Notes: generated from the letters alone by a model not told the origin. Counted from the first letter of the stretch, positions 24,229-59,960 are shown. The stretch is 64,000 nt of DNA from an uncultured Chitinophaga sp. (GCA_964538835.1 CAZIGZ010000008.1:21788-85787); one strand, 5' to 3'. Made by a program: numbers and translations.

Positions 24229-24711
24229 TTACCAGAGCTTCGTTCGCAGAACTTTCAACACGATGCTTTTATTGTTGAAGTCGAGGAATGTTGGGATTTC
24301 CGCCGGAACCGCGGATCCGCCCATTCGGCGGGCTGTCTTCAATAGATCGGCAATACGTGAGACCGGATACATTAGAGAAATCTCACTCAGTGGTATCGCT
24401 GTCAGCGGAATTGTCCCCTCCTCATGATCTTCCGCTGCTTCGTCTTCACCATTGACATGGCGCATCACCACATCCTGAAGAAAGTCATTGAAGTCAGCAA
24501 TCTTTGTCCGACGCGAGTGAATCTCATCCATCCTCAAATCCGCAAGTCGCATGTTCAGCAGCACCATTGACGACTGCAGTGTTTCATTGATCGCGAGATT
24601 GAAGTATCCAAGACACGCATACCCACTCTTCAGCAGGCATGCGACGGGAAGATACTCATGCTGTGTTGACTCACTGCCTACCAAAAGCTTTAGCACATCT
24701 TCACGTTCCAT
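24229..24711 (-). CDS. Hypothetical protein
   Basis: 160-aa ORF, last gene of the minus-strand array. No recognisable motif. Confidence 0.45.
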   Translation of the reverse strand: MEREDVLKLLVGSESTQHEYLPVACLLKSGYACLGYFNLAINETLQSSMVLLNMRLADLRMDEIHSRRTKIADFNDFLQDVVMRHVNGEDEAAEDHEEGTIPLTAIPLSEISLMYPVSRIADLLKTARRMGGSAVPAEIPTFLDFNNKSIVLKVLRTKLW

Positions 24712-24954
24712 CTCAATCCCCCCATCTTCTCAGAAATGCCCCGCGTTCCCCGGATCATCGTACTGCACATCACTGTACAGCCTCAATATGAAGGACTCGT
24801 GAACTGAACTGTTGAGTGGAGCGGATTTCAGACCCGCAAATACGTCTGCATCGAAGAAATAAGGCCAAGGCCCGAACAACAGAAACCCAGCGATTAGAGG
24901 CAAGATTTCGCGGTGTCTGGAATGCCAGAACACTAAAGTCGATCTGTCCCAACA

Positions 24955-25731
24955 CTATCTCGCGGGGCTCCTCTCCCGAAAGATCTTCGATCGATAAATT
25001 CGAAGCCGACTCAGCCAGAACTGCATCATGACCCACAGAGTCAGCAGACCATACCTCACACTGCGCCGAAAGTTGATACTGGACGCTTCGTCAAAGTAGC
25101 GAACGGGGACAGGAATGTCTCCCAGGCGAAATCCAAAGTGCACAGCCTGGGCTAGGAACTGGGTGTCGAACACAAAATCGTCCGAATTGCGTTCCCAGGG
25201 GATCTTTTCAAGTACCTCGCGACGGTAGGCTCGAAAACCACTGTGGAAATCGCCCAGATTCTGTCCCAGGACAATATTTTCAAAGATCGTCAAACACCGG
25301 TTGGCAAGATACTTCCAGCCTGGCATTCCCCCTTCGAGGGCCTCGCGGCGGGTCCGAATTCGCGAACCCAGAATCACGTCACAGTTTCCCAGTCGAATCA
25401 ACTCTGCTGCCAGAGGAATGACGCGGCTGTCGTATTGATAGTCCGGATGAATCATCACGACGATGTCCGCACCACGATCCAGAGCTGTCCGGTAGCAGGT
25501 TTTCTGGTTCCCACCATACCCCGTGTTCTTCTCGTGCTGAATAACAGTCAGCCCCAGGGACCGTGCAACCTCCACCGTTCGATCCCGACTGCAGTCGTCG
25601 ACAAGAATGATCTCCTCGACACTTCCTGGAGGAATATCCGCAAGTGTACGTGCGAGCGTCGCCTCAGCGTTATAGGCGGGCATGACAGCAATGGCTGACC
25701 CCGTTGGCCGTCGTGTTACGTCTCTCAGCAT
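24955..25731 (-). CDS. GT2 glycosyltransferase, Dpm1/GtrB-like (polyprenyl-phosphate sugar synthase type)
   Basis: [15 protein letters not shown]...[14 protein letters not shown]...[10 protein letters not shown]...MIHPDYQYD. Short soluble GT-A. Overlaps the upstream methyltransferase by 7 nt. Confidence 0.8.
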
Positions 25732-26927
25732 TCGAGGCGATCTTCAGGCGACAAGGCACTGTGTTTGTCAACACGTGCAATGAACGAGATCGTTCCGCCC
25801 TGTCGAAAAACTGCCTCAAGGACAGCCATGAGCAGAGCGACTGGACTCCCTGCAAAGTAGGCAAGCCATGACAGCACATTGCCCAGGCTGTTGCATTTCT
25901 CTCTGCTTTTTGTCCCGGCACGCTTCAGTTGAGAATAAAGCGCGTTACGCGGAAGGACGCCGAGCATATTCAGGCAACTCTGGAGCCAGCCAAAAGGATT
26001 CTGCCGTAAGGAAAAGTGGCATTCACGTTCCGGCTGAAATCCACCTCGAGTCAACAATCGTCGCAAGCCAAACCTTGAGAAATGATGAAGGTGGCGCGGT
26101 GGGTCAAGATGAAACCAAAACCGGCCTGTAACTCGAGCCTGCCAACTGGAAAAATTCGGAACTGCAACAACCAGCAATCCTCCAGGTTTCAATATCCTCC
26201 TGATTTCTTCGAGAGTTCGATCAGGGTCAGGTAAATGCTCCAGTACGTGCCACAAAACTACCATGTCGAAAGAGTCATTAGAATACCCGGCATCTTCAAG
26301 AGTTGCTCCAATCGAAAGGCGTACTTCGGAGTGCAGTCCGCTGGCGGCCTGTTGTGACAACTCAAATCCATCACACGTGAAGCCACGTGCAAGGAGCGAT
26401 CGAAGCAATACTCCGCGCCCGCAACCAATATCAAGAACTCTCCCTCTGGCCGGAACCAGGCTGGCGAGAAATCGAGCTTGCCTTGCACCAACCAAACGAA
26501 CAGCCCACTCAGTTATGCCTTTGAATTTTCTGCCGGAATCACCGTAATACGAGTCAGGATAATAGGACTTAATCGTGTCCGGGGTCGGCATTGGCACAAG
26601 CCGGCCCGACTGGCAGGCAATGCAGACGAAAATCGATACCTCTGCCTGAGGAATTCCATACGCACGCTTCGCCAAAGTTCCGCCACAGCAAGGACACGAA
26701 CTGCTCCTGGGACTCAGCTCGCCATCGGCAATCGTGACATCCAGTTCAAATTCACCTGCCAAGTCAGGCTGACTCTTTACGGTCTCACACTTCTGGGTGG
26801 AGTCCAAAGCCTCGGCCTTGGATGAAACAAGAGCCTTGCTGGAAGTAAAACGGTCGACAACCGCCACATCCTCGCCAATACCAGTTTTCTTGATGCCCGT
26901 TGTCATGTCCCACCGGATAAATCGCAT
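25725..26927 (-). CDS. SAM-dependent methyltransferase with N-terminal zinc ribbon
   Basis: CPCCGG...CIACQSG ribbon, then [12 protein letters not shown] and [12 protein letters not shown] (Methyltransf_11/23-like). ATG 26927 is preferred over TTG 26933. Confidence 0.8.
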
Positions 26928-27025
26928 CTTCAACGATGCACAAACTGAAAGACCAAACCGTGACTCTTGAAATTATTGACGCGATTTGAAGAAATGAAGA
27001 AGGAGCCTCAAAATTCTGCCTCGAT

Positions 27026-28762
27026 CTAAGGCTGCTTCAGATGAGCATCGTGGAACAATTTTCGATTCTTCAGAAGCTGGTCATTCTCAGGCTCCCGTAA
27101 GAGGGCTTGATCCAGAATGTCGACAGCACGACCAAAATTGCCCAGTTGTGCTTCACAATTGGCGAGATTCCCAAGGGCTTCCACATTCGATGGATCGATC
27201 GTCAGCGCCTGCTCAAAGAGTCGTCTGGCTTCCGTCAGATCTCGATTGCGCATACAAAATCCCAGGTTGATAAGAGCACGATAATCCTCCGGCGTCTTCT
27301 CGACAGCCTGCCGAAGATACTCGACAGCTTCGTCTTCCCGGCCCTGATACAGAATGGCACTCCCAAGGGTTGTAAAGACCCTTCCTCTGGTCTGATTTTC
27401 CGGAAACGTCAGCGCCTTTCTGGCAACACGCTCGGCCTCAATCACGCGGTCTTCTACAAGCAGAGCTATTGCCAGCTGCTCATAGGCAAGGAAATTCTCG
27501 GGATCGACACGGATGCACTCCGTCCACAGGGAGATGCTGTTATTCCAGGCGGCAGCATATTGATATGCCAGAAAACCAAAGCTAGTGGCACCAAATAGAA
27601 AGAGAACAGTACACTCTTTCGTGCGAATCCAGGATTTGCTTTCAACAATTCTGCTGACTGCCAGAAACAATCCAATATGCGGAAAGTACATATATCGATC
27701 CGCTCGGGCCGCAGCTCCAAGTTGGATCAGACCGAGCACCGGAACAAGTGTACCCAGAAACCACAGCAGCCCAACGACAACACCGGGCACACGTCGGTAG
27801 CGGTAGCCAAGAATGATTACCACAATGACGACGGCACCGCACAAGGCCGTCTCTCCAGCAGAAACACCGTAGTAAGGATACCGGTAAAACGGGGAGAGCC
27901 GTATCGGCACTAACGACTGCAAAAGGTAGTAGCCCAGGCTCTGAACAGCATTCGCCAGACGCGTTGTCAGGGCAAGCTCAGAAAGTGATGAAACAGAACC
28001 TCCTGACAGTTGTGCCGAAAACGCCATGGCCAGGGCAGCAAATGAGATCAGAAAATAGAGAATGTGTGCGAAAAGGGATCGCACAGTTCTCCGCAGACTG
28101 AATCCGGATTCTCCGTCTCGCAGCGGAACGCAATCAAGCAGTACAAACAGAAAAGGCAGTGTCACAAGGAGTTGTTTGGAAAGCAGGCTGAGAGCGAAGA
28201 AAGAAAGGGAGAGTACCTTGCATATCATTCCTCCTCCCTGCCTCGCTTTCTCCCAGCTCAGGATTGAGGCCAGTCCGAAGAAGACCGCAAGAAGTCCTTT
28301 GCGCTCCGAGACCCAGCATACGGTTTCAACGTGCTGAGGGTGAATCCCGAACAGCAAACTGACCGCCACACAAAGGCTGATACTCTTCGTCCACTGGCCA
28401 ATTATCAGGCCAACGAGAATTGTGCTTGCCGTATGCAGGCAGAGGTTTGTGAAGTGCATGACAGAAGAATTGAGACCGAAGAAGTGGCTCTCCAGCATGT
28501 AGCTCAGCCAGGTCAGCGGCATCCAGTTGCTCACAGCGACTTCAGTAAATGCCCAGTGAAGCTTCTGGAATGAAATCCCTTGATTCACCTCCGGCCTGTG
28601 GGTAACGCAGTGCACATCATCCCAGTTCAGGAAGCTGGCCCACAGGTTTTGGATGTAGGGTATGGTCGTCACCACACTTACAATGAGCAAAGGCCAGATC
28701 AACGATACCGGCGCCAAATGCCTCGGGGCACTCGGCGTCGGTGCAGAGACTTGTCCGCTCAT
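27026..28762 (-). CDS. TMTC/DUF1736-like GT-C membrane glycosyltransferase fused to C-terminal TPR repeats (paralog 1)
   Basis: Multi-pass N-terminal domain with loop-1 FLNWDDV and HPQHVETVCWVSERKGLL. The C-terminal roughly 170 aa are TPR repeats. Start shares 1 nt with the upstream stop (TAATG). Confidence 0.75.
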   Translation of the reverse strand: MSGQVSAPTPSAPRHLAPVSLIWPLLIVSVVTTIPYIQNLWASFLNWDDVHCVTHRPEVNQGISFQKLHWAFTEVAVSNWMPLTWLSYMLESHFFGLNSSVMHFTNLCLHTASTILVGLIIGQWTKSISLCVAVSLLFGIHPQHVETVCWVSERKGLLAVFFGLASILSWEKARQGGGMICKVLSLSFFALSLLSKQLLVTLPFLFVLLDCVPLRDGESGFSLRRTVRSLFAHILYFLISFAALAMAFSAQLSGGSVSSLSELALTTRLANAVQSLGYYLLQSLVPIRLSPFYRYPYYGVSAGETALCGAVVIVVIILGYRYRRVPGVVVGLLWFLGTLVPVLGLIQLGAAARADRYMYFPHIGLFLAVSRIVESKSWIRTKECTVLFLFGATSFGFLAYQYAAAWNNSISLWTECIRVDPENFLAYEQLAIALLVEDRVIEAERVARKALTFPENQTRGRVFTTLGSAILYQGREDEAVEYLRQAVEKTPEDYRALINLGFCMRNRDLTEARRLFEQALTIDPSNVEALGNLANCEAQLGNFGRAVDILDQALLREPENDQLLKNRKLFHDAHLKQP

Positions 28763-31700
28763 TATTCCGACACTACCCGTTTATTGGATTTGGACCCTAC
28801 ATTATAGACGCTGAAATCGTACCCCTCTGTGCTTGCGAGAGCCACATCCTTTCCGGTCTGCGAGATAGACGAAATATCGAACGGTTCGTCAAGTTCGATT
28901 CTGGAAGACGTTACCGACTCAAAATTCCGGGTGACTTCGAAAATCTCACCGGTTTCTGCAAGGGCGACGAAATCAGCCTGCTCGCCGACAGACTGCACAT
29001 TCACAAAGGACTTACCCCCTTCCGCCTGGAGCAGTTTCCTTAGCTGCAGAGACTTAATGTCCAGAAAGTAACACCCCGTGGATGAGCAAAACGCCACGGT
29101 CGTCATGTCTTTCGAGAACCCTCCCCCAAAGAGACTGCCAATCTTTGGCTGCCGCGTGATCGCACTGACGTTGGCCGTTGCCACATCGCCGGATGTCAAG
29201 TCCGCAAGGGAAAGTTGTCCCGACGGGTCCAGCATCATCGCAATTGAAAAATCCGGACTGACCATACAGAACCCGGAAAATGCCCCCTTGATCTCATAGG
29301 TCTTCGTTGTTTCCAGTGTGACGGCATCAAGAACCTTCAATTGAGTTGAGGTATTGCCCTTTTCAAAGATGCAAATGGAGTTGCTGCTTTCATGAAAGAA
29401 CGAGCTGGTCAAGCCAGCAGAAAACTCCACGCTCGACTTGAGTTCTGCGGAGTAGTCATCCAATGGCTCCACACGCGACAACCCGTCGACACCAAGCAAT
29501 AAAACTCCTCCGTCCCGATCAATGAACACTTTTCGCGAACTTTCCGGCACCGCTCTTCGCCTGATCAGGCGAGGTTCTTCAGAAATGGACCATAGATCAA
29601 GGACACCCTGCTGGCGAAGGGCCGCCGCAATTCCTTTATCGCTGTCCACATCAAGGCTCATCAGCTTATCGACGAACAGTGTGCTTCCAGTGTCCGAACC
29701 GCCCCATGGAACATAGGTGTATGCCAGGTATGCTAAGCCGATGAATGCGAAACTCAGTACAGCCACGAGGATTTTGGATCCCCCGGGAATAGCACCCGCT
29801 AGAACTCCTGGCGTAAGCTTCGCCATGAGGCCGGAGAATCTCCGCTTCATGCGCTGAGAACGGATCCTGCCGGGACTGCTCCCCAGATCAATTAGTGTCT
29901 GCTCAGCCCCACGGCGGACCATTTTGTCCCCGTCTTCCAGGAGCCGTTCCACGGCCTCTTCCGCGCCTTCCAGTTTCAGCAGGCCAATCCCACGGACGGC
30001 CTGATATCGTACTTCCGGTGAAGAATCTTTCAGGACCCCCAACAACGTTGGCCCAGCGGCCGATTGTCCCAGACGACCCAGTGCGATGACGGACTGAAGC
30101 TTGACAACAGGGTGGTCCTCAACAGCCTCTTCAAGGACGCCCAGCGATCCTTTGTCCTGAAAGTCCCCAATTGCCTTTGCGCATGCGGCACGAACCGTTT
30201 CATCGGGATCCCGCTTCAGCATCTCACGCAATCGAGGGAGTTGTTTTTCCTGTTTCAGGACAGCCAGTTGTTCGACGCTTTGCCGACGGACACTCGGATT
30301 GTTGTCATCCAGCATGCGAACAAAGAGCGGGGCACTCGACGGGATCTTCAGCTTGCGAAGTGCCTTGAGCGCCAACTCACGAAAAGCGCCAGAGTCGCCC
30401 TCAACGTATCGAATCAAGACCGCGGACGCACTTTCACCGCCGTTTCGGTTCAATGCCGCAAGAAGATGTTCGACGGTGTTCGGATCGGATTCACTCTCCA
30501 GGGCTTTCGCGACCGGTCCGCCCAGTTCCGGCTCGTCCATGCGGGAGGCTGCCTGGGCTGCGCTACGACGAACGGTCAGATCCGGGTCCGAAAACAAGTT
30601 CGAAAGCAGGCTCACACTTTTCGGACTGTGGATCGTGGCAAGCGCTAGTGCGGCCTGGCTTCTTACCCGAGCATCGGTATCCTCCAGAGCGTCATTGATG
30701 TGCCCAATAATTCGCTTTTCGCCCGTTCGCACCAGTGCTTCCACCGCGGCTGCTCGCATCACGGCAGATTCATGCGAAACAAACTTCTCGAAGAATTCCC
30801 GGTGGGCGGCTCCAGTGAATCTCGACAACAGCGACACCGCAAAAGCGACAACATCGACGTCAGAGCTGTTACAGGCACTCAGCAGGAATTGCTCCCATGA
30901 TGCCTTTTCCTCGCTTTCCAGTTCTTCCACCGCCGACGTGACCACGGTTCGCAGCGAATTGTTGACCAGGCCTGCCGCAAGAATCACTCCTCGGACAGAC
31001 GGCTGCTTAATGCTGATGAGTGAGGCAACTGCAATCTCGACGACAGTGCCAGACTTGTCGCTCAGGAATCGGAGCAGCGGTACAGCCGCTTCCGCATAAG
31101 GAATCATGCCAAGAGCCTTCGCACAGGCTGCCCGAACTTCTTTCGACGGCTTGCTGCCAAAAGAACTGATGGTCTCGATGGCCGTCGGGGATCCCGTGTC
31201 CCCCAATTCCAGCAGGCGCTTTCGCACGGCTTCGATGTCGGTGGCCGGCGTTGCAAGAAGTCCGGCAATCTTCCTGGTGAGCAACCGAGGAGGCGCCTTC
31301 GGCAATTCTTCACGAGTCTCCAGGAGCTTTCGGAAAGCTACCTCACGGGCCTCCCTCAATCGAGCCAGATTTCGCTCATTCTGTTCTCGGACTCGCTCTG
31401 CGGCTTCTGCTTCCGGATTCGAAACAGGCTCCTGCACAATCGGTGCTGGAGTGACGGCGGAATCAGAAGCCGGGATCTGTCCGTTCTTCTTCTCCGAATC
31501 CAGTCGGATGACCATCGATCCTGATGCCACCGCAACGCCGGACGCGCTCGAAAAGGCCGGGATGAGTGGGGACGACGCTGTCATGTCCATCGAGACAAAC
31601 GGCTGCGATGTCGGTGGCGTCAACGCTACCGGCGGAGTTGCCGGGCCGCCCATTGGAGCATACTGGGCAGCCGGATAGGGCGTTTGCTGGTACTGAGGAT

Positions 31701-32985: not shown

Positions 32986-32994
32986 ATCAATGAG

Positions 32995-33040
32995 CCCAAA
33001 AACAAAGAAATGTCCGGCCCCAACAGAGTTGAAGCCGGAC
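32995..33040 (-). terminator. Intrinsic terminator after DUF1559 copy 1
   Basis: Minus-strand RNA GUCCGGCUUCAAC-UCU-GUUGGGGCCGGAC forms a 13-bp stem with 2 G-U pairs, followed by AUUUCUUUGUUUUU. Confidence 0.6.
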
Positions 33041-33071
33041 CTTGAATTTTGTCAAAGACTTCCCTCGAAGA

Positions 33072-35119: not shown

Positions 35120-35140
35120 CGCTTTTCTCAGAATGTTGCG

Positions 35141-35277: not shown

Positions 35278-35280
35278 GAG

Positions 35281-50542: not shown

Positions 50543-51229
50543 TCACTTGAGCCGCCAGTTCTCCCACACGAACGGATACTCGTAAGTCAACTGGTGCGTG
50601 GCTTGCAGTTTCTCTTTGATCGCTGCCATGCGCCGCTGCGCATCCGGCACAAAGTCATGAAATTGTACCTGCACTTCGCGGATGTTCGTGATCCAGTCGC
50701 TGGCAATCAGATGATCAAGCAGGTCGTACTCACCACCTTCGATATTGATCTTCATCAAGTCGACGTGATCAATGCCGAGCCCTGTCAAATACGTTGCTGC
50801 CTCACGCAACTCAATCGTCACTGTCTCCGCACTGGCGCGACGGAAGATGGATGTGCCGTCCGCACCCATGAACATCGTCGCCTTTTCGTCTTTGCTCGCC
50901 AGACCGCATTCGTGTACGGTAACCAGCGGATTGTGCCTGAACCGCCACCGCAGTTTCTCCGCGAACCGATGCACCGGCTCGAACACATGCATCCGACAAC
51001 GGAATCGCGAGAAGATGTCACTCGTCCAACGGCCTTCGTAGCCGCCCAAGTCCACAACGACGGACGTGTTTTCAAGCTTGTAATCCAGTCTCAACCGATC
51101 CTCGGCCTCATCGGCATACCACTTTGCGACGCGTATTTCCGCATCCGTGAGATGAAACTTGCGCCCAAGCCAAAAGCACGCATGTCCAGTAAAGTCGAGC
51201 AGTCGTCGCAGAGTGTGCAGCAGGTTCAT
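50543..51229 (-). CDS. FkbM-family methyltransferase
   Basis: VVDLGGYEGRWTSD and LMKINIEGGEYDLL. Confidence 0.8.
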   Translation of the reverse strand: MNLLHTLRRLLDFTGHACFWLGRKFHLTDAEIRVAKWYADEAEDRLRLDYKLENTSVVVDLGGYEGRWTSDIFSRFRCRMHVFEPVHRFAEKLRWRFRHNPLVTVHECGLASKDEKATMFMGADGTSIFRRASAETVTIELREAATYLTGLGIDHVDLMKINIEGGEYDLLDHLIASDWITNIREVQVQFHDFVPDAQRRMAAIKEKLQATHQLTYEYPFVWENWRLK

Positions 51230-51235: not shown

Positions 51236-51928
51236 TTAATGTCCTTCCTTGCGGCGATCCCAAACTGACTTTTCAACGAAGATGGTGTTGATGAATGTGT
51301 CGCCATACACGACATAACCGACTTCACTCATTCGCTCAAAAATACCCTCGATCTTCTCCTCACTCACATGCGTCACAGACTCGATGCAGAACACCGGTGG
51401 CCGATACCGTTCGAAATTGAAACCTCGCAAGATGTCCAGATCGAGTCCTTCCACATCAATGGACACAAACTCGGGGCAGCGATCAAAATGCTCCCCGATG
51501 ATGTCGTGCAGGGGAATCAGCGGAATTCGCACTGTGCGATTCAGTTTGTATGCCGGGTTCGTCAGCGCCTCATCCACGAACTCGCGAGAAAATGTGCTGA
51601 GAGTGGCTGGTTCCATGACAAAAAAGTCTGCCTCGGACCGGCGGTCGATCCCCACACCAACATTCAGGCATTTGTCGCGCGGCCTTGCTCGCTGGATACG
51701 ACTGCACAACACGGGGTTCGGCTCGACGCACACCCCCGACAGCCCCATTCGGTAGAAAAAGTAGGTATTGCTCAGAAGCTTCGCGTCATGGGCGCCAACA
51801 TCAAGATAGGTTGGGCGATCGATGCGCAGAACACCTCTTAGCAGATAATCGACAATAATGTCCTCGCCGGACTGTGCGTAGGACTTGCGATAATGCCGAC
51901 GAAATCGGCTGAGAAACCCTAGCACCAC
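51236..51928 (-). CDS. FkbM-family methyltransferase
   Basis: YAQSGEDI, YLDVGAHDAK and FVSIDVEGLDLDILRG. GTG start. Confidence 0.8.
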   Translation of the reverse strand: MVLGFLSRFRRHYRKSYAQSGEDIIVDYLLRGVLRIDRPTYLDVGAHDAKLLSNTYFFYRMGLSGVCVEPNPVLCSRIQRARPRDKCLNVGVGIDRRSEADFFVMEPATLSTFSREFVDEALTNPAYKLNRTVRIPLIPLHDIIGEHFDRCPEFVSIDVEGLDLDILRGFNFERYRPPVFCIESVTHVSEEKIEGIFERMSEVGYVVYGDTFINTIFVEKSVWDRRKEGH

Positions 51929-53999: not shown

Positions 54000-54327
54000 C
54001 GCGACTTCAGCAGGTCTTCGAAAGCAACTGTCTTTGGCGAGAGTTTCCGTGCCGAACCCCAGAGTCGATTTGAAGCGCACACTCCGTTCCTCTCGGTGAC
54101 ACGCGCGCATCACGATTTGAGGAATCAATGGTGCTGATCGCGGCGACCGCGACCATCAGGCATTTCTCCAGGCCATCCATGAAAGACATATTCGGCGGGT
54201 TCCGTTTGGTTGACACTGCGATCATATCGGCCAACCGGCGTCCGTACGACGGACCGGTTCCCTGCCGCTGGCTGATTAACGATTACTTAACAATGTTCCC
54301 GGGTTGGGTTCGCACCCTTGCGGGGTT

Positions 54328-54467: not shown

Positions 54468-56261
54468 CTATGGCGTGACTCCTTTTTCAATCGCCTGCAG
54501 GTCTCTCTGCACATCAGGCCACCCAGGTCTTAGCTCCAGGGCACGCCGAAAATGGAGAATGGCCGATGTCAAGTCACCACGATCTCGCGCCAGCGAACCA
54601 GCCAGGGCGCGAGCTTCAGCGGAACTGTCCTGAGTGTGAAATGCGAGTTCGAGGTACTGGGTTGCGGTGACCAGCTCATTTCGTGACAGATCACTTAATG
54701 CCAGACACACATACAATGCGGCGAGATTCTTGGCACGTCGTAGATCGCGGTGAACCGGCAACTGGCGTTTCTGCAACTGAAAAGCACGCATGAGAGTCGT
54801 TCTTGCTGTGGCTGCCTCGCCATGATAAATCTCCTGTTCCCCGAGGCGAACAAGCAGGATCCACGATTCCTGACGCCGTTCCCTAAGCTCTCTGTCAAGC
54901 TGACGGAGAAATGGCAGAACCTCCGATTCTCGATTCTCGATGCTTGATGCATGAATCAGATTCTGAATGGCTCGATCATTGTCAGGATTCTCAACGACGG
55001 CCGCCGCCCAGAGTTTCATTCCGGTGGAGTAGTCCGTTGCTCTCAGATAGCAACAACTGGCAAGAAGAAGTCCAGCAATGCCTGCAACCAGCCACGACCT
55101 CGCTGCTTCCACTGTTGTGGAACAGCGAAGAAAGAGAATCGAAGCAAAGCCGAACGTCAGGAATGCCAGTGGAAGGTACATCCGATGGTCGACCCACAGA
55201 TCCGCGGTGGGAATGAAAGACGATGTCGGAGACAAAATGATGAGCGGCGAAAGGACCAGAAAAAGAATGGCCCACTTGCGCCCCCACAAGATCCACAGAA
55301 CACCTGCCAGCAGTGCACTCGTCAGGCCAATCCAGAATCCGTTCTGCCAGACTGTTGCCGGGACCTGCAGCCCGTGATCAATACTGAGCCACTGAGGCCA
55401 GCACGCGGAGAAAATGTAAAGCCATATCACCTGACATTGTGCGGCAAGGTACAAAGGGACCGGTGGTGCATCACCTCCAAATCCCACATTGCCGGCTCCC
55501 GTCATCAGACCGGGAAGGAGTGTCCAGACGGCAGGAATCGTCAGCAAAACCCCTGCAGCAGCCAGCTTCCATTGAGCTCTGACGACTGCTCGCCATGAAT
55601 CTGCAAGGAAGGCCCGATCCATCAGGAGCATCACCGCCGGAGCTGTAATGATGATGGTCTTTGAATAAATCCCGGCCGCCATTGACAGTCCCGCAAGACC
55701 AAGCCACGCGACGCTTCCTGAAATCCTCCATCGCGCAGAGCAATAAAGAAACAGAACAAAGAACAATCCCATCAGAGACTCACATCTTTGTGCCACGTAA
55801 GCAATTGCAGCGGAGTTCAGCGGATGGAAGAGCCACAACAGCATCCCAACGATCGCCACGCTCCAGCATTTTGTTACCGAGGTACTGCTCTGCGGGAGCT
55901 GACTCATCAACAGCATCGCCAGAAAATAGAGCGACAACCCTGTCAGGAAATGAATGAGAACATTGCCGACTCGGTGAACAAATTGAGATTCTCCGAAGAG
56001 ACGTGATTCCAGCTGAAACGTCAACCTGACAAGGGGACGGGCTGCCGGGTTCATCCAGGGCTGGTCAATCAGTATGTCAATGATCCCGTGTGTGTCCGGA
56101 ACAACGGTCACAACGACTTCATCGTCAAACATCCGCGGACCGGAAAAGGACGGAAAGTAACAGATGAAAAGGACGATCAGGCCCAGCAGCATGATCGGGG
56201 TGGTATAGCGTCGCAATGACTCTGCCGACTCTTCATTCCGCATTTCTTCGCGTTTCGCCAT
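54468..56261 (-). CDS. TMTC/DUF1736-like GT-C + TPR protein (paralog 3)
   Basis: Loop-1 RMFDDEVV, HPLNSAAIAYVAQRCESL, multi-pass N-terminal domain and C-terminal TPRs. The start is uncertain (56261, 56243 or 56192). Confidence 0.7.
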   Translation of the reverse strand: MAKREEMRNEESAESLRRYTTPIMLLGLIVLFICYFPSFSGPRMFDDEVVVTVVPDTHGIIDILIDQPWMNPAARPLVRLTFQLESRLFGESQFVHRVGNVLIHFLTGLSLYFLAMLLMSQLPQSSTSVTKCWSVAIVGMLLWLFHPLNSAAIAYVAQRCESLMGLFFVLFLYCSARWRISGSVAWLGLAGLSMAAGIYSKTIIITAPAVMLLMDRAFLADSWRAVVRAQWKLAAAGVLLTIPAVWTLLPGLMTGAGNVGFGGDAPPVPLYLAAQCQVIWLYIFSACWPQWLSIDHGLQVPATVWQNGFWIGLTSALLAGVLWILWGRKWAILFLVLSPLIILSPTSSFIPTADLWVDHRMYLPLAFLTFGFASILFLRCSTTVEAARSWLVAGIAGLLLASCCYLRATDYSTGMKLWAAAVVENPDNDRAIQNLIHASSIENRESEVLPFLRQLDRELRERRQESWILLVRLGEQEIYHGEAATARTTLMRAFQLQKRQLPVHRDLRRAKNLAALYVCLALSDLSRNELVTATQYLELAFHTQDSSAEARALAGSLARDRGDLTSAILHFRRALELRPGWPDVQRDLQAIEKGVTP

Positions 56262-56658
56262 TTTCTGACTCAGGATTGAGTTGACTGCAATTCTCAATTT
56301 GTTCTGCGGAACGATCTGTTGGCATGGGTTGATGAAATGGCCGCTCAGTCGCCAGTCGTCGGACAAGTCTTGTGATCTGCTCCCGCTGCTGCTCAACCGC
56401 GTGCAGGAGATAGAAGAATGCGAGCAGGAAACAGATGGCTGTGCCGTAAAGCAGGACATCAGCACCCCGCCCGATACTCAGGAGGCTCGCAATCCGGTTG
56501 GTAATTGACGGGACCAGTATCGCGATCAGTGCCAGGAACCAAACAAGCCCACGGAGTGAACTGATACTCCGTCGAGTGCGTCCCAATATCTGCAGGATCA
56601 ATTCCAGCAGCAACAGCACCGACATTAAGGTGCCCGCGAGCCATTGAAAGAGTGTCAT
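56233..56658 (-). CDS. DUF2304-like small membrane protein
   Basis: 141 aa with 3-4 TM segments, then an EQQREQITRLVRRLA amphipathic tail. ATGA overlap with the upstream GT2. Family recalled as a frequent GT2 partner. Confidence 0.6.
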   Translation of the reverse strand: MTLFQWLAGTLMSVLLLLELILQILGRTRRSISSLRGLVWFLALIAILVPSITNRIASLLSIGRGADVLLYGTAICFLLAFFYLLHAVEQQREQITRLVRRLATERPFHQPMPTDRSAEQIENCSQLNPESENGETRRNAE

Positions 56659-57326
56659 TTCAAAAGCCTCGCGATCGCCAGACGTCCCAGAACCTTGAAT
56701 GCGGCACTGCTCTTCTGTCCTTTTTCAAGACTCTCTGTTGTGTATCGAATTTGGCAGGGTACCTCCACCACACGAAGCCGCGAGCGAGCTGCGAGAGACA
56801 GGATTTGTGAAGCATGAGCCATTCCATCCTCCGAAAATCGGAGCGTTCTTGCGGCGTCTGCTGTCATGGCTCTGAGCCCATTGTGCGCATCCGTCAGTCG
56901 CATGCCCGTTGTTAGTCGAGTAAACAGAACCGCGAGCTTCAATAGCACCCGGCGGTGGAGCGGAATCCCGGGAGCACTCCCAAGGAATCTTGAACCAAGC
57001 ACGAGGTCCGCTTCTGACCGCTTCAGGATCTCAATCATCTGAGGAACGTCGGCGGCTCGATGCTGTCCATCAGAGTCAAACGTCACCAGGAACGTTGCAC
57101 CTCTGCTGAGCGCAAAATCAATCCCTGTCAGAAGTGCAGCACCCTGACCACGGTTAACCATATGTCGCAATACGTGCACGTTTCGGGAAGCCGCCAGTTC
57201 CGCAGTCTGGTCATAGGATCCATCATCAACCACAACAACGCTGGCAGACAGCGCCGACAGGTCATCGAGCACTCCGACGACTCGGTGCATTTCGTTGAAT
57301 GCCGGCACAATGACCCAGATGCTCAT
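56655..57326 (-). CDS. GT2 glycosyltransferase, Dpm1/GtrB-like
   Basis: MSIWVIVPAFNEMHRV...VVVVDDGSYDQT...NRGQGAAL...TFDSDGQH. 223 aa with no TM segment. Confidence 0.8.
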   Translation of the reverse strand: MSIWVIVPAFNEMHRVVGVLDDLSALSASVVVVDDGSYDQTAELAASRNVHVLRHMVNRGQGAALLTGIDFALSRGATFLVTFDSDGQHRAADVPQMIEILKRSEADLVLGSRFLGSAPGIPLHRRVLLKLAVLFTRLTTGMRLTDAHNGLRAMTADAARTLRFSEDGMAHASQILSLAARSRLRVVEVPCQIRYTTESLEKGQKSSAAFKVLGRLAIARLLK

Positions 57327-57405: not shown

Positions 57406-58689
57406 TCAGTTAACTTTCATAGCCTGTTGATGATCCGATGCCGTGCTAACCTGAGAATTGTCCTTCCAGCGGATGTCATGAATCAGCCGGCTGTATTCCG
57501 AGACAGTCGTCTTCTGGGCGAGAACCAAATTTCGCGCGGACTCCTGTAAGGACTGCATTCCTGATCGCTCCGCAGTTTCCCGAATCTCGAACGCCGGTTT
57601 GTGCTCGCTGATGGCATTCCGAAGCTCTGCCGTCACCTCCATCGTCTCGAATACGGCTGTTCTTCCAAAATACCCCGTGTTCAGATTCTTCTCATTCGCG
57701 ACTCCTCGAGCTACCTGCGGCGGCTCAGAAGCCAGGCAATTCAGGAGTCGGCATTCATCTTCCGTGGCCGAGTAAACTTCTTTCGAGTCTTCGGAGATCA
57801 ACCGGATCAGTCGCTGGGCAATCACCCCTCGAAGACAGTCTGCGATCGTCATGGCTGAAATGCCAAAGTTGCGAAGTACGTCGATGGCCGATGCGGTATT
57901 GTTCGCATGCAGGGTTGAGATCACAAGAACACCAGTTGTGGCGGCTCGACAGGCAATCTGGGCCGTTTCAGCATCTCGGATCTCACCAATCGAGATGATG
58001 TTCGGGTCCTGCCGAAGAACTCCTCGCAGAGCTGTCGCAAAATGGAGTCCGGTCTTAGCGTCGACCTGAATCTGATTGGCCCCGGAAATACGGCGTTCAA
58101 CGGGATCTTCGATCGTTACGAGACTTCTGTTGGGCTGGTTCAGTTGTGACAGCATGCTGTAGACGGTCGTCGTCTTTCCAGCACCGACGGGCCCCACTAC
58201 CAGCAGCAGCCCATACGGAGCCGACAGGAAACGCTTGACGCTTCGAAGCTGCTCGGGAGCGAAGCCAAGCGTGTCCGGCGTCACGAACTGATCCGACGGA
58301 GGCATGAGCCTCATAACAACTCTCTCACCAAGAATCGTCGGAATCGAACTGACACGAACATCGCGTGGAATCCCCGTGATCTGCGAGGCGACGATCTGGC
58401 CATCCTGCGGCAGGCGTTTGTCGGTAATGTCCATCCCACACAGCACTTTGATTCGACTGTTCACCTGAGCTCCATAAGCTCCAGGAACTCGTGCAATATC
58501 CTGAAGTGCACCGTCAACCCGAAACCGTACTCGAAGTCCGCCAGCGGCAGGATCCAGGTGAATATCGGTCGCCCGATGCGAGAATCCTCGCTGCAGGAGC
58601 ACATTCACAAAAGATGCGGGCTCAACAACACTGATCAGTTCGGTCAGCTCTGCAGCAAGCGCAGATGACGGAAAAGCACCGGGGTCCAT
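57406..58689 (-). CDS. GspE/PilB-family secretion ATPase, short form
   Basis: Walker A GPVGAGKTTT, Asp box TIEDPVE, Walker B IISIGEIRD and His box VISTLHANN. No N1 domain, and the tetracysteine motif is absent. Confidence 0.85.
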   Translation of the reverse strand: MDPGAFPSSALAAELTELISVVEPASFVNVLLQRGFSHRATDIHLDPAAGGLRVRFRVDGALQDIARVPGAYGAQVNSRIKVLCGMDITDKRLPQDGQIVASQITGIPRDVRVSSIPTILGERVVMRLMPPSDQFVTPDTLGFAPEQLRSVKRFLSAPYGLLLVVGPVGAGKTTTVYSMLSQLNQPNRSLVTIEDPVERRISGANQIQVDAKTGLHFATALRGVLRQDPNIISIGEIRDAETAQIACRAATTGVLVISTLHANNTASAIDVLRNFGISAMTIADCLRGVIAQRLIRLISEDSKEVYSATEDECRLLNCLASEPPQVARGVANEKNLNTGYFGRTAVFETMEVTAELRNAISEHKPAFEIRETAERSGMQSLQESARNLVLAQKTTVSEYSRLIHDIRWKDNSQVSTASDHQQAMKVN

Positions 58690-58823
58690 TAGAACGTTCC
58701 TGTTTGTGTCAGATGTCTTCGGCGCTGGGTCAAGTAACGCCCTTCGCCTGACAGATACTTCATTTCACACAGCCACTGTGCACGACCTAAGTAATGATCA
58801 CGATGCGATCAGATTCCAAATCT

Positions 58824-59960
58824 TCAATCTGATTCACGAAAATTGTAATCCGGCAGTTTCTTTCGGAAACTGATTGGATTCTCCTTGAACCAGACGGTTG
58901 ATAGAACCAGCAGCGAAATGACCGTTGCGAAGATGGAGAGTTTCCTCCGAAAGCCCTCCTCCTTCAGAATCCCGAGGCTTCCAGTCGACGCAGCTGCGGC
59001 ACTCAGGAGCAGGGCAGCCAGTTGCGAGTTGACTCCAAGGACGGATTCCCGCTTGAACAGCATCGGAAGCAGCGCGGCAGCCCCCAATAGGCAACATGGC
59101 AGGGCAACAGCGACCAGCAGTGTCTTTTCCCGCTGTTCCGCCCGTGCCGATTGTGAAACACCAAGGTCGTATGCCGACTCTTCCCGGTCATCTGTGATGG
59201 ACCAGACCTTCGTCAAACCCGATGCCTTCAAAACCGAGAGCACATCTTCAGACGGGCATACGACAGAAAAATGACCATTGCGCTTTTGAGCGGCTTTCCA
59301 CAAACGGATAAGTCCAGCAACCGCACCGCTGTTGATATACTGGATTCTGGAAAGATCGATCATCAGGTTGGCGGGAGCTGCAAGTTCGTACTGTGTAATG
59401 GCTGCTGTCGTGATGGCTTCCTGATCGCTCCAGCTGAGTTTTTCTGCGAGTGTAAAGAAACGAACCAGACAATAGCCCCGATGAGTCTCCAGCGTGAATG
59501 GATCTTTGGGTTCTTCCTGATCAGCATTATCCGTTACCTGCTGCGGGGCTCCCGAGACTTTCGCAATTTGATTTCGTATGACTCCGACATCAAACTCACG
59601 AGTATCATCGAGGTGCAGGAAGGCAAGCGCCGACTCTCGGCTCTTCAGCACCTTCCATTGCTGAAGAAGTCCTGAACCTTCAAGTTCTGCAATGATCGTC
59701 GGTGACTCGGTCACAACAATCAGTTTTCGAGTACGAGGGTCCAGCTGCTTCCAGACCTTCAAAAGCACAGCAAGTACACCGTCCGGAAGACTATCAAGGC
59801 CTGGCACGGTGACGATCACGTTGTGTACATGAGATTCCGCGATCATGGTGAGAATCTTGCGGGTCGCCGCTTCGGTCTGTTCCCAGGTCATGGTCCGGAG
59901 ATCAGGAGTGAACTCGATCCCGCAATACCGCTCATGGCGATCAAACGCAATTCCACTCAT
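58824..59960 (-). CDS. Membrane protein with two tandem STAS-like domains
   Basis: The second domain, MIDLSRIQYINSGAVAGLIRLWKAAQKRNGHFSVVCPSEDVLSVLKASGL, is SpoIIAA/STAS-like. The first domain is weaker. Three C-terminal hydrophobic helices. Confidence 0.6.
   Translation of the reverse strand: MSGIAFDRHERYCGIEFTPDLRTMTWEQTEAATRKILTMIAESHVHNVIVTVPGLDSLPDGVLAVLLKVWKQLDPRTRKLIVVTESPTIIAELEGSGLLQQWKVLKSRESALAFLHLDDTREFDVGVIRNQIAKVSGAPQQVTDNADQEEPKDPFTLETHRGYCLVRFFTLAEKLSWSDQEAITTAAITQYELAAPANLMIDLSRIQYINSGAVAGLIRLWKAAQKRNGHFSVVCPSEDVLSVLKASGLTKVWSITDDREESAYDLGVSQSARAEQREKTLLVAVALPCCLLGAAALLPMLFKRESVLGVNSQLAALLLSAAAASTGSLGILKEEGFRRKLSIFATVISLLVLSTVWFKENPISFRKKLPDYNFRESD

Follow-up and report, generated by a model that had tools for sequence, protein, structure and literature searches.

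Three genes, each joining a multi-pass membrane domain to C-terminal TPR repeats, lie within 36 kb of the stretch of DNA analysed here (64,000 nucleotides, hereafter the window), and they raise the question of what this locus may glycosylate. A preliminary description had proposed a bacterial protein O-glycosylation system, encoded by 26 consecutive minus-strand genes running from 59960 to 24229. The ORF list and Pfam scans bear out this run, and all the start/stop overlaps quoted for it were found on the minus strand (TAATG at 28760-28764; ATGA at 39880-39883, 43076-43079 and 56655-56658; GTGA at 47106-47109; ATGCTGA at 25725-25731). All genes of the array discussed below are on this strand. 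The array is planctomycete-like.

An exact 1692-bp duplication (32988-34679 = 35274-36965) includes a DUF1559 gene; both copies of the gene have a strong terminator-like hairpin behind them, one at 33012-33040 (minus strand) with a 13-bp stem and an identical one at 35298-35326. The array is therefore to be seen as several transcription units rather than as one operon. Synteny divides it into two modules, around the GT-C paralogs here called A and C, which we would place at 24229-36788 (module 1) and 37115-57326 (module 2). A T2SSE/PilB-type secretion or pilus ATPase (57406-58689; T2SSE 336 bits) and a STAS-domain protein with predicted C-terminal TM segments (58824-59960) stand at the head of the array, and their membership is uncertain.

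The three paralogs and the TMTC enzymes

Paralog A (27026-28762) consists of a TMTC-like GT-C membrane domain (residues 1-405) and C-terminal TPR repeats (about 409-576), with TPR matches in Pfam and an AlphaFold pLDDT of 92.4. Paralog B (38036-39883), also with TPR matches in Pfam, lies among cytoplasmic GT2 and GT4 genes, while paralog C (54468-56261) is a divergent TMTC-like GT-C with degenerate TPR repeats. The common layout first described for the three is thus confirmed. Identity between A and B is 29% along the whole protein (E 4e-61), whereas C is only 20-23% identical to A and B (E 2e-7 and 7e-9) and belongs to its own subfamily; the A-family and C-family profiles nevertheless align at 99.9% in hhalign (E 1.5e-33, 375 columns). 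In 52-sequence alignments, the acidic pair reported in loop 1 (D48-D49 in A, D49-D50 in B, D46-D47 in C) is invariant in both subfamilies, and the reported block HPxH(V)E...ER(K)D is invariant or almost so. The same is true, in the family alignments, of the motifs DD, HPxHxE..R.D, SK...VT and DRYxY. The invariant residues of A are D48, D49, H141, P142, E146, K196, T201, R268, D355 and Y359, and the motifs of B read DD (49-50), HPQHVESV..SERKD, SKGMLVT and ADRYAYIP. It should be noted that the family is an extremely widespread one, with about 57,000 cluster representatives. Other genomes often carry 2-6 paralogs in tandem, and three in 36 kb are not unusual for the family.

Compared with the published alignment of animal TMTC1-4, the A/B family profile gave 99.8% in hhalign (E 1.3e-27, 375 columns) and the C family profile 99.9% (E 6.8e-31, 367 columns). 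Even taken singly, human TMTC sequences gave 98-99%, while single ArnT and Pmt1 sequences gave 1% or less. On this profile evidence, the animal TMTC O-mannosyltransferases have true bacterial relatives in the three membrane enzymes, as the preliminary description had suggested. The DUF1736 match which it expected was not found in A, B or C at any threshold of the Pfam scan, and the PMT_2 match of C (25.8 bits) falls under the cut-off of 26.1. In the TMTC motif scheme (PMC7801869 Table 4), the family motifs align with M1, M3, M7 and, for K and T only, M4. However, the M4 glutamate and the DW of the DUF1736 loop (M5), proposed to bind metal in TMTCs, are not conserved in the family, so that the catalytic details may differ. 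The AlphaFold model of the N-domain of C (pLDDT 90.5) matched only GT-C enzymes at a Foldseek probability >0.9 (STT3, EmbB, Pmt4, PglB, ArnT, AftB), and no Wzy or WaaL was seen among the matches. Placement with Wzy/ligase or ArnT proteins and loss of the loop-1 site, which had been named as evidence against the original proposal, were not observed, the DD pair being invariant.

A, B and C would each be an 11-helix GT-C with the invariant DD in its first outward loop and a periplasmic C-terminal TPR domain; by analogy with all characterised relatives, each would transfer one sugar from a polyprenyl-monophosphate-sugar to an extracytoplasmic acceptor. Periplasmic glycosylation dependent on a polyprenyl-phosphate-sugar is well supported, with the identity of the donor and the periplasmic topology as predictions. 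We found no tested bacterial member of the family. The earlier statement that bacterial homologues lack a defined acceptor overlooks, however, TfpW of P. aeruginosa, which combines 11 TM helices and a DDx motif in loop 1 with a TPR domain in the periplasm, and which glycosylates type IV pilin (bioRxiv 10.1101/2020.04.19.049825). TfpW is a close precedent in its architecture.

Candidate donor synthases and the surroundings of C and B

The sugar donors would come from dedicated GT2s of the Dpm1 type acting at the cytoplasmic face. The one that may supply A (24955-25731; PF00535) is a Dpm1-like candidate polyprenyl-phosphate-sugar synthase, with weak NCBIfam matches to Dol-P-hexose transferase, PpgS and AglJ, and a PDB match to 5mlz (E 2.8e-8). 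Its orthologues, 83-86% identical, directly follow the A-type GT-C in three other lineages (L002, L084, L089), and homologues 45-65% identical lie within about 5 kb of a family GT-C in some 8 of 80 loci from other phyla; a Dpm1-like GT2 is close by in only about 10% of family loci. The GT2 near C (56655-57326) is a PpgS/GacI-like candidate polyprenyl-phosphate-HexNAc synthase whose PDB matches are headed by 5mlz, the Dol-P-Man synthase of Pyrococcus (E 6.9e-14), with ArnC next. Its score of 197 bits for NCBIfam PpgS (NF058614) is far under the equivalog cut-off of 370, and its sugar is therefore a candidate only; the likely product would be polyprenyl-P-GlcNAc or polyprenyl-P-GalNAc. Both enzymes are thus of the Dpm1/PpgS/ArnC type, as proposed. 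The claim that every paralog has such a neighbour stands for A and C, which appear to have their own lipid-sugar donor synthase alongside, but not for B. The GT2s flanking B (39880-40977, whose stop overlaps the start of B, and 37115-37951, TuaG/WcaE-like and downstream of B) are of the ordinary cytoplasmic type by Pfam and NCBIfam, and a comparison of 83 loci showed no second case of this adjacency.

The gene beginning at the ATGA overlap at 56655-56658, left undescribed previously, encodes a DUF2304 protein of 141 residues with three hydrophobic segments (56233-56658; PF10066 51.1 bits, cut-off 25.5). It overlaps the GT2 stop through this ATGA and the start of C by 29 nt, making the locus of C, third gene of the set, a GT2-DUF2304-GT-C triad of the GacIJL or PpgS-Rv3632-Rv3779 type. 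GacJ and Rv3632 stimulate their partner GT2s (bioRxiv 10.1101/180810, PMC9671496), and the GacJ/Rv3632-like protein may similarly join the GT2 in supplying C. L001, L090 and the P0123 contig share this conserved triad, with GT2 orthologues 64% identical in L001 and L090. In three of the four lineages (L001, the P0123 contig and the window) an ABC transporter and methyltransferases follow; in L001 and the P0123 contig, the genes after C include Wzt-type ABC ATPases with Wzt_C, and CMP-sugar and Kdo-type genes.

In the window, C is followed by a fused TMD-NBD ABC exporter (52212-54128; ABC_tran, ABC_membrane), a candidate lipid-linked glycan exporter or flippase on the basis of its MsbA (289 bits), HepA (271) and PglK (244) matches, all under the equivalog cut-offs. 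Then come three FkbM-type methyltransferases (51236-51928, 50543-51229 and 49511-50239; Methyltransf_21), a class I SAM methyltransferase (48343-49356; Methyltransf_11), a GT4 with probable start at 48338 (47106-48338; Glycos_transf_1, Glyco_trans_1_4), a Glyco_trans_1_2-type glycosyltransferase-like protein (46009-47109; PF13524 90.9 bits), and an AsnB-like glutamine amidotransferase (44131-46008; Asn_synthase 285 bits, GATase_7), a candidate for sugar or uronate amidation. An EpsE/TuaG-like GT2 of cytoplasmic type and uncertain start (43076-44323; PF00535 118 bits; NCBIfam), a GT4 starting at the ATGA overlap at 43079 (41778-43079) and a WcaE-like GT2 (41042-41827; Pfam, NCBIfam) complete the genes towards B. 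No GtrA, Wzx or MATE flippase, no initiating phosphoglycosyltransferase, and no polysaccharide export (OPX/PCP), ligase or polymerase gene was found within the window.

The conserved neighbours of A

Module 1 would comprise, in order, the DUF1559 gene in two copies, a HEAT-repeat membrane protein, A, a class I SAM methyltransferase (25725-26933; Methyltransf_23 107 bits), the GT2 and a 160-aa protein. The DUF1559/H-X9-DG prepilin-like protein (33072-34325; N_methyl and SBP_bac_10; probable start MFKGNL at 34325) carries the prepilin motif GFTLIELL and a stretch rich in Ser and Thr (40% S/T); the second copy (35358-36611), within the repeat, has an identical translation. From Pfam, TM prediction and alignment with orthologues, the 1407-aa HEAT protein (28762-32985; HEAT_2 228 bits, Zn_Ribbon) is made up of an N-terminal zinc ribbon, an unconserved S/P-rich linker, HEAT repeats, one TM segment (about 1061-1079) and a conserved C-terminal domain of some 320 residues, which is probably periplasmic. 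No Pfam domain was found in the 160-aa protein (24229-24711), whose orthologues, 54-61% identical, occupy the same position in L002, L084, L087, L088 and L089.

The core formed by the DUF1559 protein, the HEAT protein (1400 aa), the GT-C/TPR enzyme and the 160-aa protein is present in full in five lineages (among them L002, L087, L088 and L089, whose contig begins at the HEAT gene), and in part in three more (L004, L086 and L001 have partial cores). In seven other lineages an orthologue of A comes directly after the HEAT gene, and in six the HEAT gene adjoins a DUF1559 gene; the DUF1559 orthologues, 54-64% identical, are upstream of HEAT in L002, L086, L087 and L088 and adjoin it in L001. The sugar genes beside the core vary, with aminotransferases in one lineage and a split transketolase, an epimerase-GT2 fusion and YfhO in others. 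Since the core is constant while these genes change, we infer that A would O-glycosylate a constant neighbour, which may be the pilin-like protein or else the HEAT protein, on its periplasmic C-terminal domain; this would match what is known of TfpW and its pilin in P. aeruginosa. Planctomycetes have DUF1559 genes in great number, so that plain adjacency weighs less there than in other phyla. Prepilin-like genes adjoin family GT-Cs in Proteobacteria, Desulfobacterales, Hydrogenedentota, Verrucomicrobia and Acidobacteria. The co-conservation of the DUF1559 and HEAT proteins with A fits the two acceptors named in the preliminary description, although it does not show them to be such. The third, at 17138-20668, is a WD40 protein with nothing connecting it to the system.

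Protein or polysaccharide

Protein is a candidate acceptor only; the conserved context of C (ABC transporter, methyltransferases, GacI-GacJ-GacL-like triad) fits the modification of a polysaccharide at least equally. It is possible, though we think it doubtful, that A, B and C all add periplasmic side-chain sugars to an ABC-exported, lipid-linked polysaccharide or glycolipid, on the model of GtrABV, GacIJL, ArnC/ArnT and PpgS/Rv3779, with the TPR domain docking the enzyme to export or assembly machinery. Both characterised DUF2304 triads modify polysaccharides, not proteins (bioRxiv 10.1101/180810; PMC9671496), three-component systems are widespread (PMC11127046), B is located among cytoplasmic GTs, and TPRs also occur in the export proteins BcsC and PgaA (weak NCBIfam matches); the exporter, methyltransferase and GT2/GT4 genes after C, and the Wzt-type and Kdo-type genes of the other two lineages, point the same way. 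Against this, the closest profile relatives are the protein-specific TMTCs, family members adjoin pilin genes in several phyla, export, ligase and polymerase genes are missing from the window, and around A it is the pilin-like, HEAT and 160-aa proteins that are kept while the glycan genes change, the reverse of what would be expected if the product of those glycan genes were the acceptor.

An O-oligosaccharyltransferase or polymerase, B especially, moving a methylated oligosaccharide en bloc from polyprenyl-diphosphate to proteins after flipping by the PglK/MsbA-like exporter, seems improbable to us. The top Foldseek matches are indeed STT3 and PglB, the catalytic subunits of OSTs, B lacks a Dpm1-like GT2 partner and lies among GTs that could build an oligosaccharide, and TfpW was itself proposed to be both glycosyltransferase and oligosaccharyltransferase (bioRxiv 10.1101/2020.04.19.049825). 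However, STT3, ArnT, PMT and Emb all score alike (TM 0.4-0.5), so that no GT-C subfamily is favoured; the profile homology is to TMTCs, which use a monosaccharide from a monophosphate donor; Pfam detected no WWD-type or PglL/Wzy_C features; and the window has no initiating phosphoglycosyltransferase. Still more remote is the idea that the paralogs are pseudo-enzymes, membrane scaffolds or chaperones whose TPRs organise pilus-like or secretion assemblies beside unrelated GT2 genes. The missing metal-binding residues, the PilW/PilF-like NCBIfam matches of TPR proteins, often assembly factors, and the nearby T2SSE ATPase and pilin-like genes would suit it; but neither DD nor the Lys that binds phosphate (SK..VT) nor the Arg (DRYxY) varies across 50-sequence alignments and across a family of about 57,000 relatives, and the dedicated donor synthases, besides their translational coupling, show co-conservation at 64-86% identity.

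On balance, we lean towards two neighbouring envelope-glycosylation modules built on TMTC-branch GT-Cs. Module 2 (the GT2, DUF2304, C, the ABC exporter, five methyltransferases, GT4/GT2s, the AsnB-like amidotransferase and B) would make an ABC-exported, methylated glycan that receives periplasmic HexNAc from C, much as in GacI-GacJ-GacL, and that may be destined for a protein or may remain a polysaccharide or glycolipid. In planctomycetes a single glycoprotein has been characterised, and its O-glycan, rich in GalNAc and heavily methylated, is made by unknown enzymes (PMC5088730). In module 1, the pilin-like protein and the giant HEAT protein may be the targets of A.

The gene array and its three GT-C/TPR paralogs

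The ORF list, the translations and the Pfam scans showed that 26 minus-strand genes follow one another in unbroken succession from 59960 to 24229, and confirmed the array and the three paralogs within it that had been noticed in a preliminary description of this DNA. The paralogs, all encoded on the minus strand, are A (27026-28762, 578 aa), B (38036-39883, 615 aa) and C (54468-56261, 597 aa), and according to Pfam they have in common a polytopic N-terminal domain followed by C-terminal TPR repeats. All the start/stop overlaps described earlier are present in the sequence; one gene, encoding a 141-aa protein (56233-56658) and beginning at the overlap ATGA 56655-56658, had been left undescribed.

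Transcription of the 36-kb array as one operon was rejected on account of the strong terminator-like hairpin that follows each copy of the DUF1559 gene; another such hairpin is found 3' of the last gene, and with all of them the array is to be regarded as several transcription units. The DUF1559 gene is present twice in the window, within an exact direct duplication of 1692 bp (32988-34679 and 35274-36965, offset 2286 bp), each copy of which comprises the complete prepilin-like gene and its terminator-like hairpin with a 13-bp stem. The duplication either arose very recently, in a gene that is probably highly expressed, or is an artefact of the assembly. Matches to sigma-70-type promoters between 24000 and 60400 were fewer than in shuffled sequence (2 vs 10.5 ± 3.4 and 2 vs 8.2 ± 3.1), a shortfall consistent with non-canonical promoters in this organism or with very dense coding.

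At the head of the array (57406-59960), immediately upstream of the GT2-DUF2304-GT-C triad that ends with C, are encoded a STAS-domain protein with three C-terminal TM segments and a 427-aa T2SSE/PilB-type ATPase. In L090, one of the related loci from other genomes used for synteny, a PilM-like/zinc-ribbon protein occupies a comparable position, and together these genes hint that a machine for secretion or a pilus-like structure may be involved. The array is followed closely downstream by the genes for a Ser/Thr protein kinase and a response-regulator/FHA protein (20705-22195 and 22700-24223), and in L090 the C-type GT-C has directly behind it a pair of Ser/Thr kinases (9852-12544), of which one has an FHA domain; the kinase/FHA genes beside GT-C loci may represent a recurrent regulatory association. 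The WD40 protein at 17138-20668, earlier put forward as a candidate acceptor, was rejected as a component of the system, as it has no synteny support in any related locus. Further along, a DUF5690 membrane protein (13555-14874, 460 bits) and a PhoD-like phosphatase (10750-12393) are encoded amid oxidoreductase and aminotransferase genes and are, as far as can be told, unrelated to the glycosylation array.

Over their entire length, A and B share 29% identity (E 4e-61), while the BLAST similarity of C to them is weak (E 2e-7 and 7e-9). Each paralog retrieved many homologues, and the profiles A1 and A2 built from them (52 sequences each) aligned over 375 columns with 99.9% probability (E 1.5e-33). 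On these grounds A, B and C are true paralogs, with C in a subfamily of its own.

The preliminary description had assigned the three membrane domains to TMTC/DUF1736-like GT-C enzymes, an assignment that was upheld by profile and fold as to the TMTC family, but not as to DUF1736. No DUF1736 (PF08409) match was found at E ≤ 10 on the three N-domains, nor in the precomputed Pfam lists of 240 homologues. The N-domains of A and B matched no Pfam family even at E ≤ 10; that of C came close to PMT_2 (PF13231, 25.1-25.8 bits against a cut-off of 26.1), a family absent from A and B and carried by about 13% of the listed homologues. Neither Pfam nor NCBIfam matched the membrane domains to the DUF2723/TMEM260-like or ArnT families. 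Searches against PDB sequences, by phmmer with the N-domains and by hmmsearch with a 22-sequence profile, gave no matches, so that at this level there would be no detectable relative with a solved structure.

The AlphaFold models were of high confidence (pLDDT 92.4 for full-length A, with visible helical repeats, and 90.5 for the N-domain of C). TPR proteins dominated the Foldseek matches to the full-length model of A, which therefore said nothing about the membrane domain, and for this reason C was modelled as the N-domain only. With that domain, all matches of probability above 0.9 were GT-C enzymes (STT3, EmbB, Pmt4, PglB, ArnT, AftB and Pmt1/2, query TM 0.4-0.5), the remaining listed matches having a probability of 0.35 or less. 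Within this fold, of the GT-C_A class, the profile comparison was more discriminating. The reference was an alignment of 12 animal TMTC1-4 N-domains, with ArnT and Pmt1 rows, retyped from Additional file 1 of PMC7801869. By hhalign, the A/B family matched the TMTC alignment with 99.8% probability (E 1.3e-27, 375 columns) and the C family with 99.9% (E 6.8e-31, 367 columns); either family matched single human TMTC1-4 sequences with 98-99% probability (E 1.5e-13 to 9.6e-20, 172-372 columns), but single ArnT or Pmt1 sequences with 1% or less, which is not significant. Membership in the Wzy/WaaL/O-antigen ligase or ArnT families, the alternative raised earlier, was rejected by Foldseek and hhalign; a Wzy_C or O-antigen ligase domain was found neither by Pfam at E ≤ 10 nor among the listed Foldseek matches.

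Of the seven motifs that PMC7801869 (Table 4) lists for TMTCs, some are kept here and others altered. The acidic pair M1 of the first luminal/periplasmic loop is kept as D48-D49 in A, D49-D50 in B and D46-D47 in C, aligns with the TMTC DD and is invariant in the alignments A1, A2 and A3. The block HPxHTEAV..GRAD, which includes the RxD of M3, is kept as HPxHVESV..ERKD, and in M4, KE(T/Q)xxT, the Lys and Thr are kept and the Glu is lost (SKQLLVT in A, SKGMLVT in B, SKTIIIT in C). M7, (E/D)RxxY, with the phosphate-binding Arg before TM10, is kept as DRYxY (ADRYMYFP in A, ADRYAYIP in B), C having the shifted variant VDHRMYLP. Three further elements share the invariance of the acidic pair in the family: HP.H.E...R, Lys-x4-Thr and D-R-Y-x-Y. 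In contrast, M2, SHKSYRP, is reduced to NWxP(L/V), e.g. NWHPL, in A and B and to RPL in C; the DW of M5, in the DUF1736 loop, is replaced by (F)YPHP; and of the PxxP of M6 one proline is aligned (P341). Both residues proposed as metal-binding in TMTCs, the Glu of M4 and the DW of M5, thus differ here. After the last TM helix, several TPR Pfam families were found at about aa 410-600 of A and B, and weakly on C; the odd number of TM helices suggests that this TPR domain is periplasmic. From the profile comparison and the motifs, A, B and C are bacterial, DUF1736-negative members of the TMTC branch of GT-C enzymes.

Membership in this GT-C/TPR family is ordinary, because of its size, its breadth and the labels it already bears. 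A HMMER scan of 1.84 billion cluster representatives (50% identity) with the N-domain of A found 56,971 proteins at E ≤ 1e-3, of which 31,533 remain at E ≤ 1e-10 and 11,391 at E ≤ 1e-30. Species genomes of GTDB gave at least 600 matches, whose best 80 loci belong to Planctomycetota, Verrucomicrobiota, Acidobacteriota, Desulfobacterota, Gemmatimonadota, Hydrogenedentota, Chlorobi and Nitrospirota, and many family members are labelled 'protein O-mannosyl-transferase' by JGI. Among the loci compared, tandem paralogs, two to six side by side, are frequent. In many genomes of Verrucomicrobiota, Planctomycetota and Sedimentisphaerales, as at L005, L039, L059, L082 and other loci, three to six GT-C/TPR paralogs are lined up head to tail and lack a neighbouring GT2; in such arrays one donor may serve many acceptor-specific enzymes.

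Candidate donor synthases and the surroundings of C

Each paralog had been described as flanked by a GT2, with Dpm1/GtrB-like enzymes among them. The pairing with Dpm1-type enzymes holds for A and C, and does not for B, whose flanking GT2s (37115-37951 and 39880-40977) are ordinary cytoplasmic types (TuaG/WcaA/EpsE-like); the GT2 adjacency seen at B was not repeated among the 83 loci compared.

The GT2 before C (56655-57326) is closest to PpgS, scoring 197 bits and therefore below the equivalog cut-off of 370, and it matched the Pyrococcus Dol-P-Man synthase 5mlz (E 6.9e-14) and ArnC. Between it and C is the gene at 56233-56658, found in the C module only, whose start overlaps the stop of the GT2 gene and whose end overlaps the start of C. 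Its product is a three-helix DUF2304 protein (PF10066, 51.1 bits against a cut-off of 25.5). DUF2304 is the family of GacJ, which binds and stimulates the GlcNAc-P-undecaprenol synthase GacI; the GT-C GacL then adds GlcNAc to an ABC-exported rhamnan (bioRxiv 10.1101/180810; PMC9671496). In mycobacteria, Rv3632 does the same for the polyprenyl-P-GalNAc synthase PpgS, upstream of the GT-C Rv3779 (bioRxiv 10.1101/180810; PMC9671496). With a PpgS-like GT2, a protein of the GacJ family and C, the genes 56655-56233-54468 are therefore a textbook three-component module in which the third part is a TMTC-like GT-C, and because of the DUF2304 gene the pairing of C with its Dpm1-type GT2 is stronger than had been realised. 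The triad is conserved in L001 (GT2 64%, DUF2304 55% and GT-C 45% identical), and is also present in L090 and on the P0123 contig.

The GT2 of A (24955-25731) is Dpm1-like (Dol-P-hexose transferase 70 bits, 5mlz E 2.8e-8), again below the equivalog cut-offs. Orthologues 83-86% identical to it come after the A-type GT-C in L002, L084 and L089, and homologues 45-65% identical lie within about 5 kb of a family GT-C in about 8 of 80 loci belonging to other phyla. Judging from these relationships, the partner synthases would couple HexNAc, or some other sugar, to a bacterial polyprenol instead of making Dol-P-Man. Pfam revealed no flippase (GtrA/SMR, Wzx or MATE) among the window ORFs of at least 140-150 aa and four short ORFs, and the only candidate flippase in the window is the ABC exporter at 52212-54128.

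This MsbA/HepA/PglK-like exporter follows C and is in turn followed by methyltransferases (three FkbM and one class I), GT4/GT2 enzymes, an AsnB-like amidotransferase and B. Behind the C orthologue of L001 and that of the P0123 contig come CMP-sugar/Kdo-type genes, a Wzt-type ABC ATPase with Wzt_C and several methyltransferases, together the signature of an ABC-transporter-dependent, methyl-capped glycan; there, the triad with its ABC genes parallels GacIJL with GacDE. In L090, on the other hand, the triad lies between the PilM-like protein and the Ser/Thr kinases. Given these two contexts, C may act either on a lipid-linked glycan once this has been exported or on a protein. Pfam scans across the window found no initiating phosphoglycosyltransferase, Wzx/Wzy, ligase or PglL-type enzyme.

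Conserved neighbours of A

Synteny separates the array into two modules, one around A and the other comprising C, the exporter and the genes behind it up to B. In the first, orthologues of A (44-49% identical) always come right after the gene for an orthologue of the HEAT protein, which has 1407 aa in the window (28762-32985). A is moreover linked to the DUF1559 gene, with the HEAT gene in between, in the window, where the DUF1559 gene is doubled, in L002 (as in L003, L084 and L085, of the same lineage), in L087 and in L088. All these loci also have p160, a 160-aa soluble protein without a Pfam family. The other loci show parts of the same set: L089, whose contig starts at the HEAT gene, has the HEAT, A-type GT-C and p160 genes, with DUF1559 not seen; the short contig L004 has HEAT and the A-type GT-C, with DUF1559 and p160 not seen; L086, whose contig ends in the HEAT gene, has DUF1559 and HEAT, with GT-C and p160 not seen; and L001, in divergent orientation, has DUF1559 and HEAT together with a B-like GT-C and the C triad, p160 not being seen. 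The DUF1559 orthologues are 54-64% identical and those of p160 54-61%. In five lineages the p160 gene occupies the same place, behind the A-type GT-C or behind the GT2 that accompanies it (window 24229-24711; L002 13011-13529; L087 10999-11580; L088 10808-11452; L089 8236-8751), and p160 is an uncharacterised core component of the module.

The sugar genes that follow this core vary. In the window they are a methyltransferase and the Dpm1-like GT2; in L002, aminotransferases, a dehydratase and an acetyltransferase; in L087, L088 and L089 (11580-18898, 11578-19260 and 8808-15782, respectively), a split transketolase, a 670-aa epimerase/dehydratase-GT2 fusion, methyltransferases and a YfhO-family GT-C, a set suggesting that the lipid-linked donor sugar is of an unusual kind, perhaps branched-chain or modified, and that a further GT-C acts in the periplasm. 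Constant protein neighbours combined with variable sugar genes are what would be expected if the acceptor were among the constant proteins.

Two of these can be described further. The DUF1559 protein begins like a classical prepilin (GFTLIELL); it also contains an H-X9-DG motif and a stretch of 40% Ser/Thr. The HEAT protein consists of a zinc ribbon, a HEAT array, one TM segment and a conserved C-terminal domain of about 320 aa; from this topology, the zinc ribbon and the HEAT array would be cytoplasmic, and the C-terminal domain would face the periplasm. A homologue search with the latter returned one trivial match, and a metagenome scan with the HEAT alignment found three loci only, two of them of the L002 lineage. 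In other phyla, family GT-C genes are found beside prepilin-like genes in L014, L017, L057 and L083, and the proteobacterial locus L020 has the compact order pilin, GT-C/TPR, Dpm1-like GT2. Adjacency to a DUF1559 gene is in itself weak evidence, because these genes are very numerous in planctomycetes; the argument for the acceptor of A rests on the ordered conservation of several genes. On this basis, protein O-glycosylation by A is plausible; for C and B it is one possibility. We found no earlier description of a set of pilin-like, HEAT and p160 proteins tied to a TMTC-type GT-C.

Known systems and the nature of the acceptor

By sequence, the closest known enzymes are animal TMTC1-4 (CAZy GT105), homologous over the whole 11-TM domain (about 370 columns) and likewise provided with a C-terminal TPR domain. 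Animal TMTCs use Dol-P-Man on cadherins and protocadherins, whereas the partner synthases here suggest another sugar, and we know of no cadherin-type substrates in bacteria. To our knowledge, TMTC enzymes are known only from eukaryotes; the family described here is far larger in bacteria. Homologues 'even among prokaryotes' have been mentioned (PMC7801869). Apart perhaps from TfpW, literature searches retrieved no bacterial family member whose function has been studied, nor any other characterised bacterial GT-C enzyme bearing TPRs.

TfpW, a GT-C arabinosyltransferase acting on the group IV type IV pilins of Pseudomonas aeruginosa, is a protein of about 646 aa that has its N-terminus in the cytoplasm and 11 TM helices, depends on a DDx in periplasmic loop 1 and exposes a large TPR domain to the periplasm; the tfpW gene directly follows pilA, and the pilin is glycosylated on Ser/Thr from a polyprenyl-P-Araf donor (bioRxiv 10.1101/2020.04.19.049825). 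Compared by its published description and not by sequence, TfpW is the closest bacterial precedent in architecture and context: the 11 TM helices, the loop-1 DD and the predicted periplasmic TPR domain recur here, and A is linked to a prepilin-like gene. The differences are that the partner is a 400-aa DUF1559/H-X9-DG protein, that the HEAT gene intervenes before A, and that no D-Araf pathway (DprE1/E2-like) genes were seen in the window by Pfam scans. The TfpW motif Yx6PFx7P is absent as such from the family; Yx6Px7P, one residue of spacing off, is present in 100 of 119 family ORFs.

In pathway logic, the three-component systems come closest. In GacI-GacJ-GacL of the streptococcal group A carbohydrate and in PpgS-Rv3632-Rv3779, responsible for the GalN of mycobacterial arabinogalactan, a Dpm1-type GT2 making polyprenyl-P-HexNAc, a 3-TM DUF2304 activator and an external GT-C are combined as at 56655-56233-54468, and GacIJL also acts together with an ABC-exported glycan. 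The acceptors of both systems are polysaccharides, and the window lacks an equivalent of the Wzx-like GacK. Neither GacL nor Rv3779 is known to be TMTC-like or to bear a TPR domain. More broadly, a lipid-sugar synthase (GT2 or PRPP-dependent) and a periplasmic GT-C are likewise combined in the ArnC/ArnT, GtrA-GtrB-Gtr(type) and GT136 systems (PMC11127046). ArnT and ArnC are among the structural and sequence matches, yet there is no significant profile similarity to ArnT, and no GtrA, SMR or MATE flippase gene was found in the scanned window ORFs. We know of no TPR domain in the GT-C enzymes of these three systems. The present system is a variant of the known three-component periplasmic glycosylation, using a TPR-bearing GT-C of the TMTC type; nothing in its mechanism is unexpected, and the family is very common.

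A more specific reading would make the TMTC-like GT-C/TPR enzymes the missing protein O-glycosyltransferases of Planctomycetota and related phyla, with A, together with the HEAT protein and p160, specifically O-glycosylating DUF1559/H-X9-DG prepilin-like proteins with lineage-variable sugars; in this complete form we consider it unlikely. The one planctomycete glycoprotein characterised so far bears an O-glycan that is rich in GalNAc and heavily methylated, and the enzymes behind it are not known (PMC5088730). In the window, the candidate donor synthase of HexNAc type adjoins the TMTC-like transferase and five methyltransferases, a combination that is circumstantial evidence, at least compatible with that glycan (PMC5088730).

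The bacterial relatives of TMTCs are among the largest unstudied glycosyltransferase families of environmental bacteria, with about 57,000 cluster representatives and up to six paralogs side by side. The window is unusually informative in that two paralogs have their own candidate donor synthases and that, in one module, constant protein neighbours and variable sugar genes provide concrete candidate acceptors. A polysaccharide acceptor, if true, would add a TPR-bearing class of GT-C to the three-component glycan-modification systems. A protein acceptor, if true, would reveal the enzymology behind planctomycete surface glycoproteins (PMC5088730) and would bear on the evolutionary origin of the TMTC pathway. 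Should prepilin O-glycosylation hold true, a function would be gained both for an enzyme family of about 57,000 clusters and for the massively expanded DUF1559 family, and the bacterial ancestor of cadherin O-mannosylation by animal TMTCs would be a pilin-glycosylation system. In eukaryotes, TMTCs attach O-mannose to cadherins, and brain malformation and hearing loss have been linked to these enzymes. What makes the finding valuable is that it offers concrete candidate acceptors, open to testing, for an uncharacterised and very large family of enzymes with a relationship to this human disease-linked pathway.
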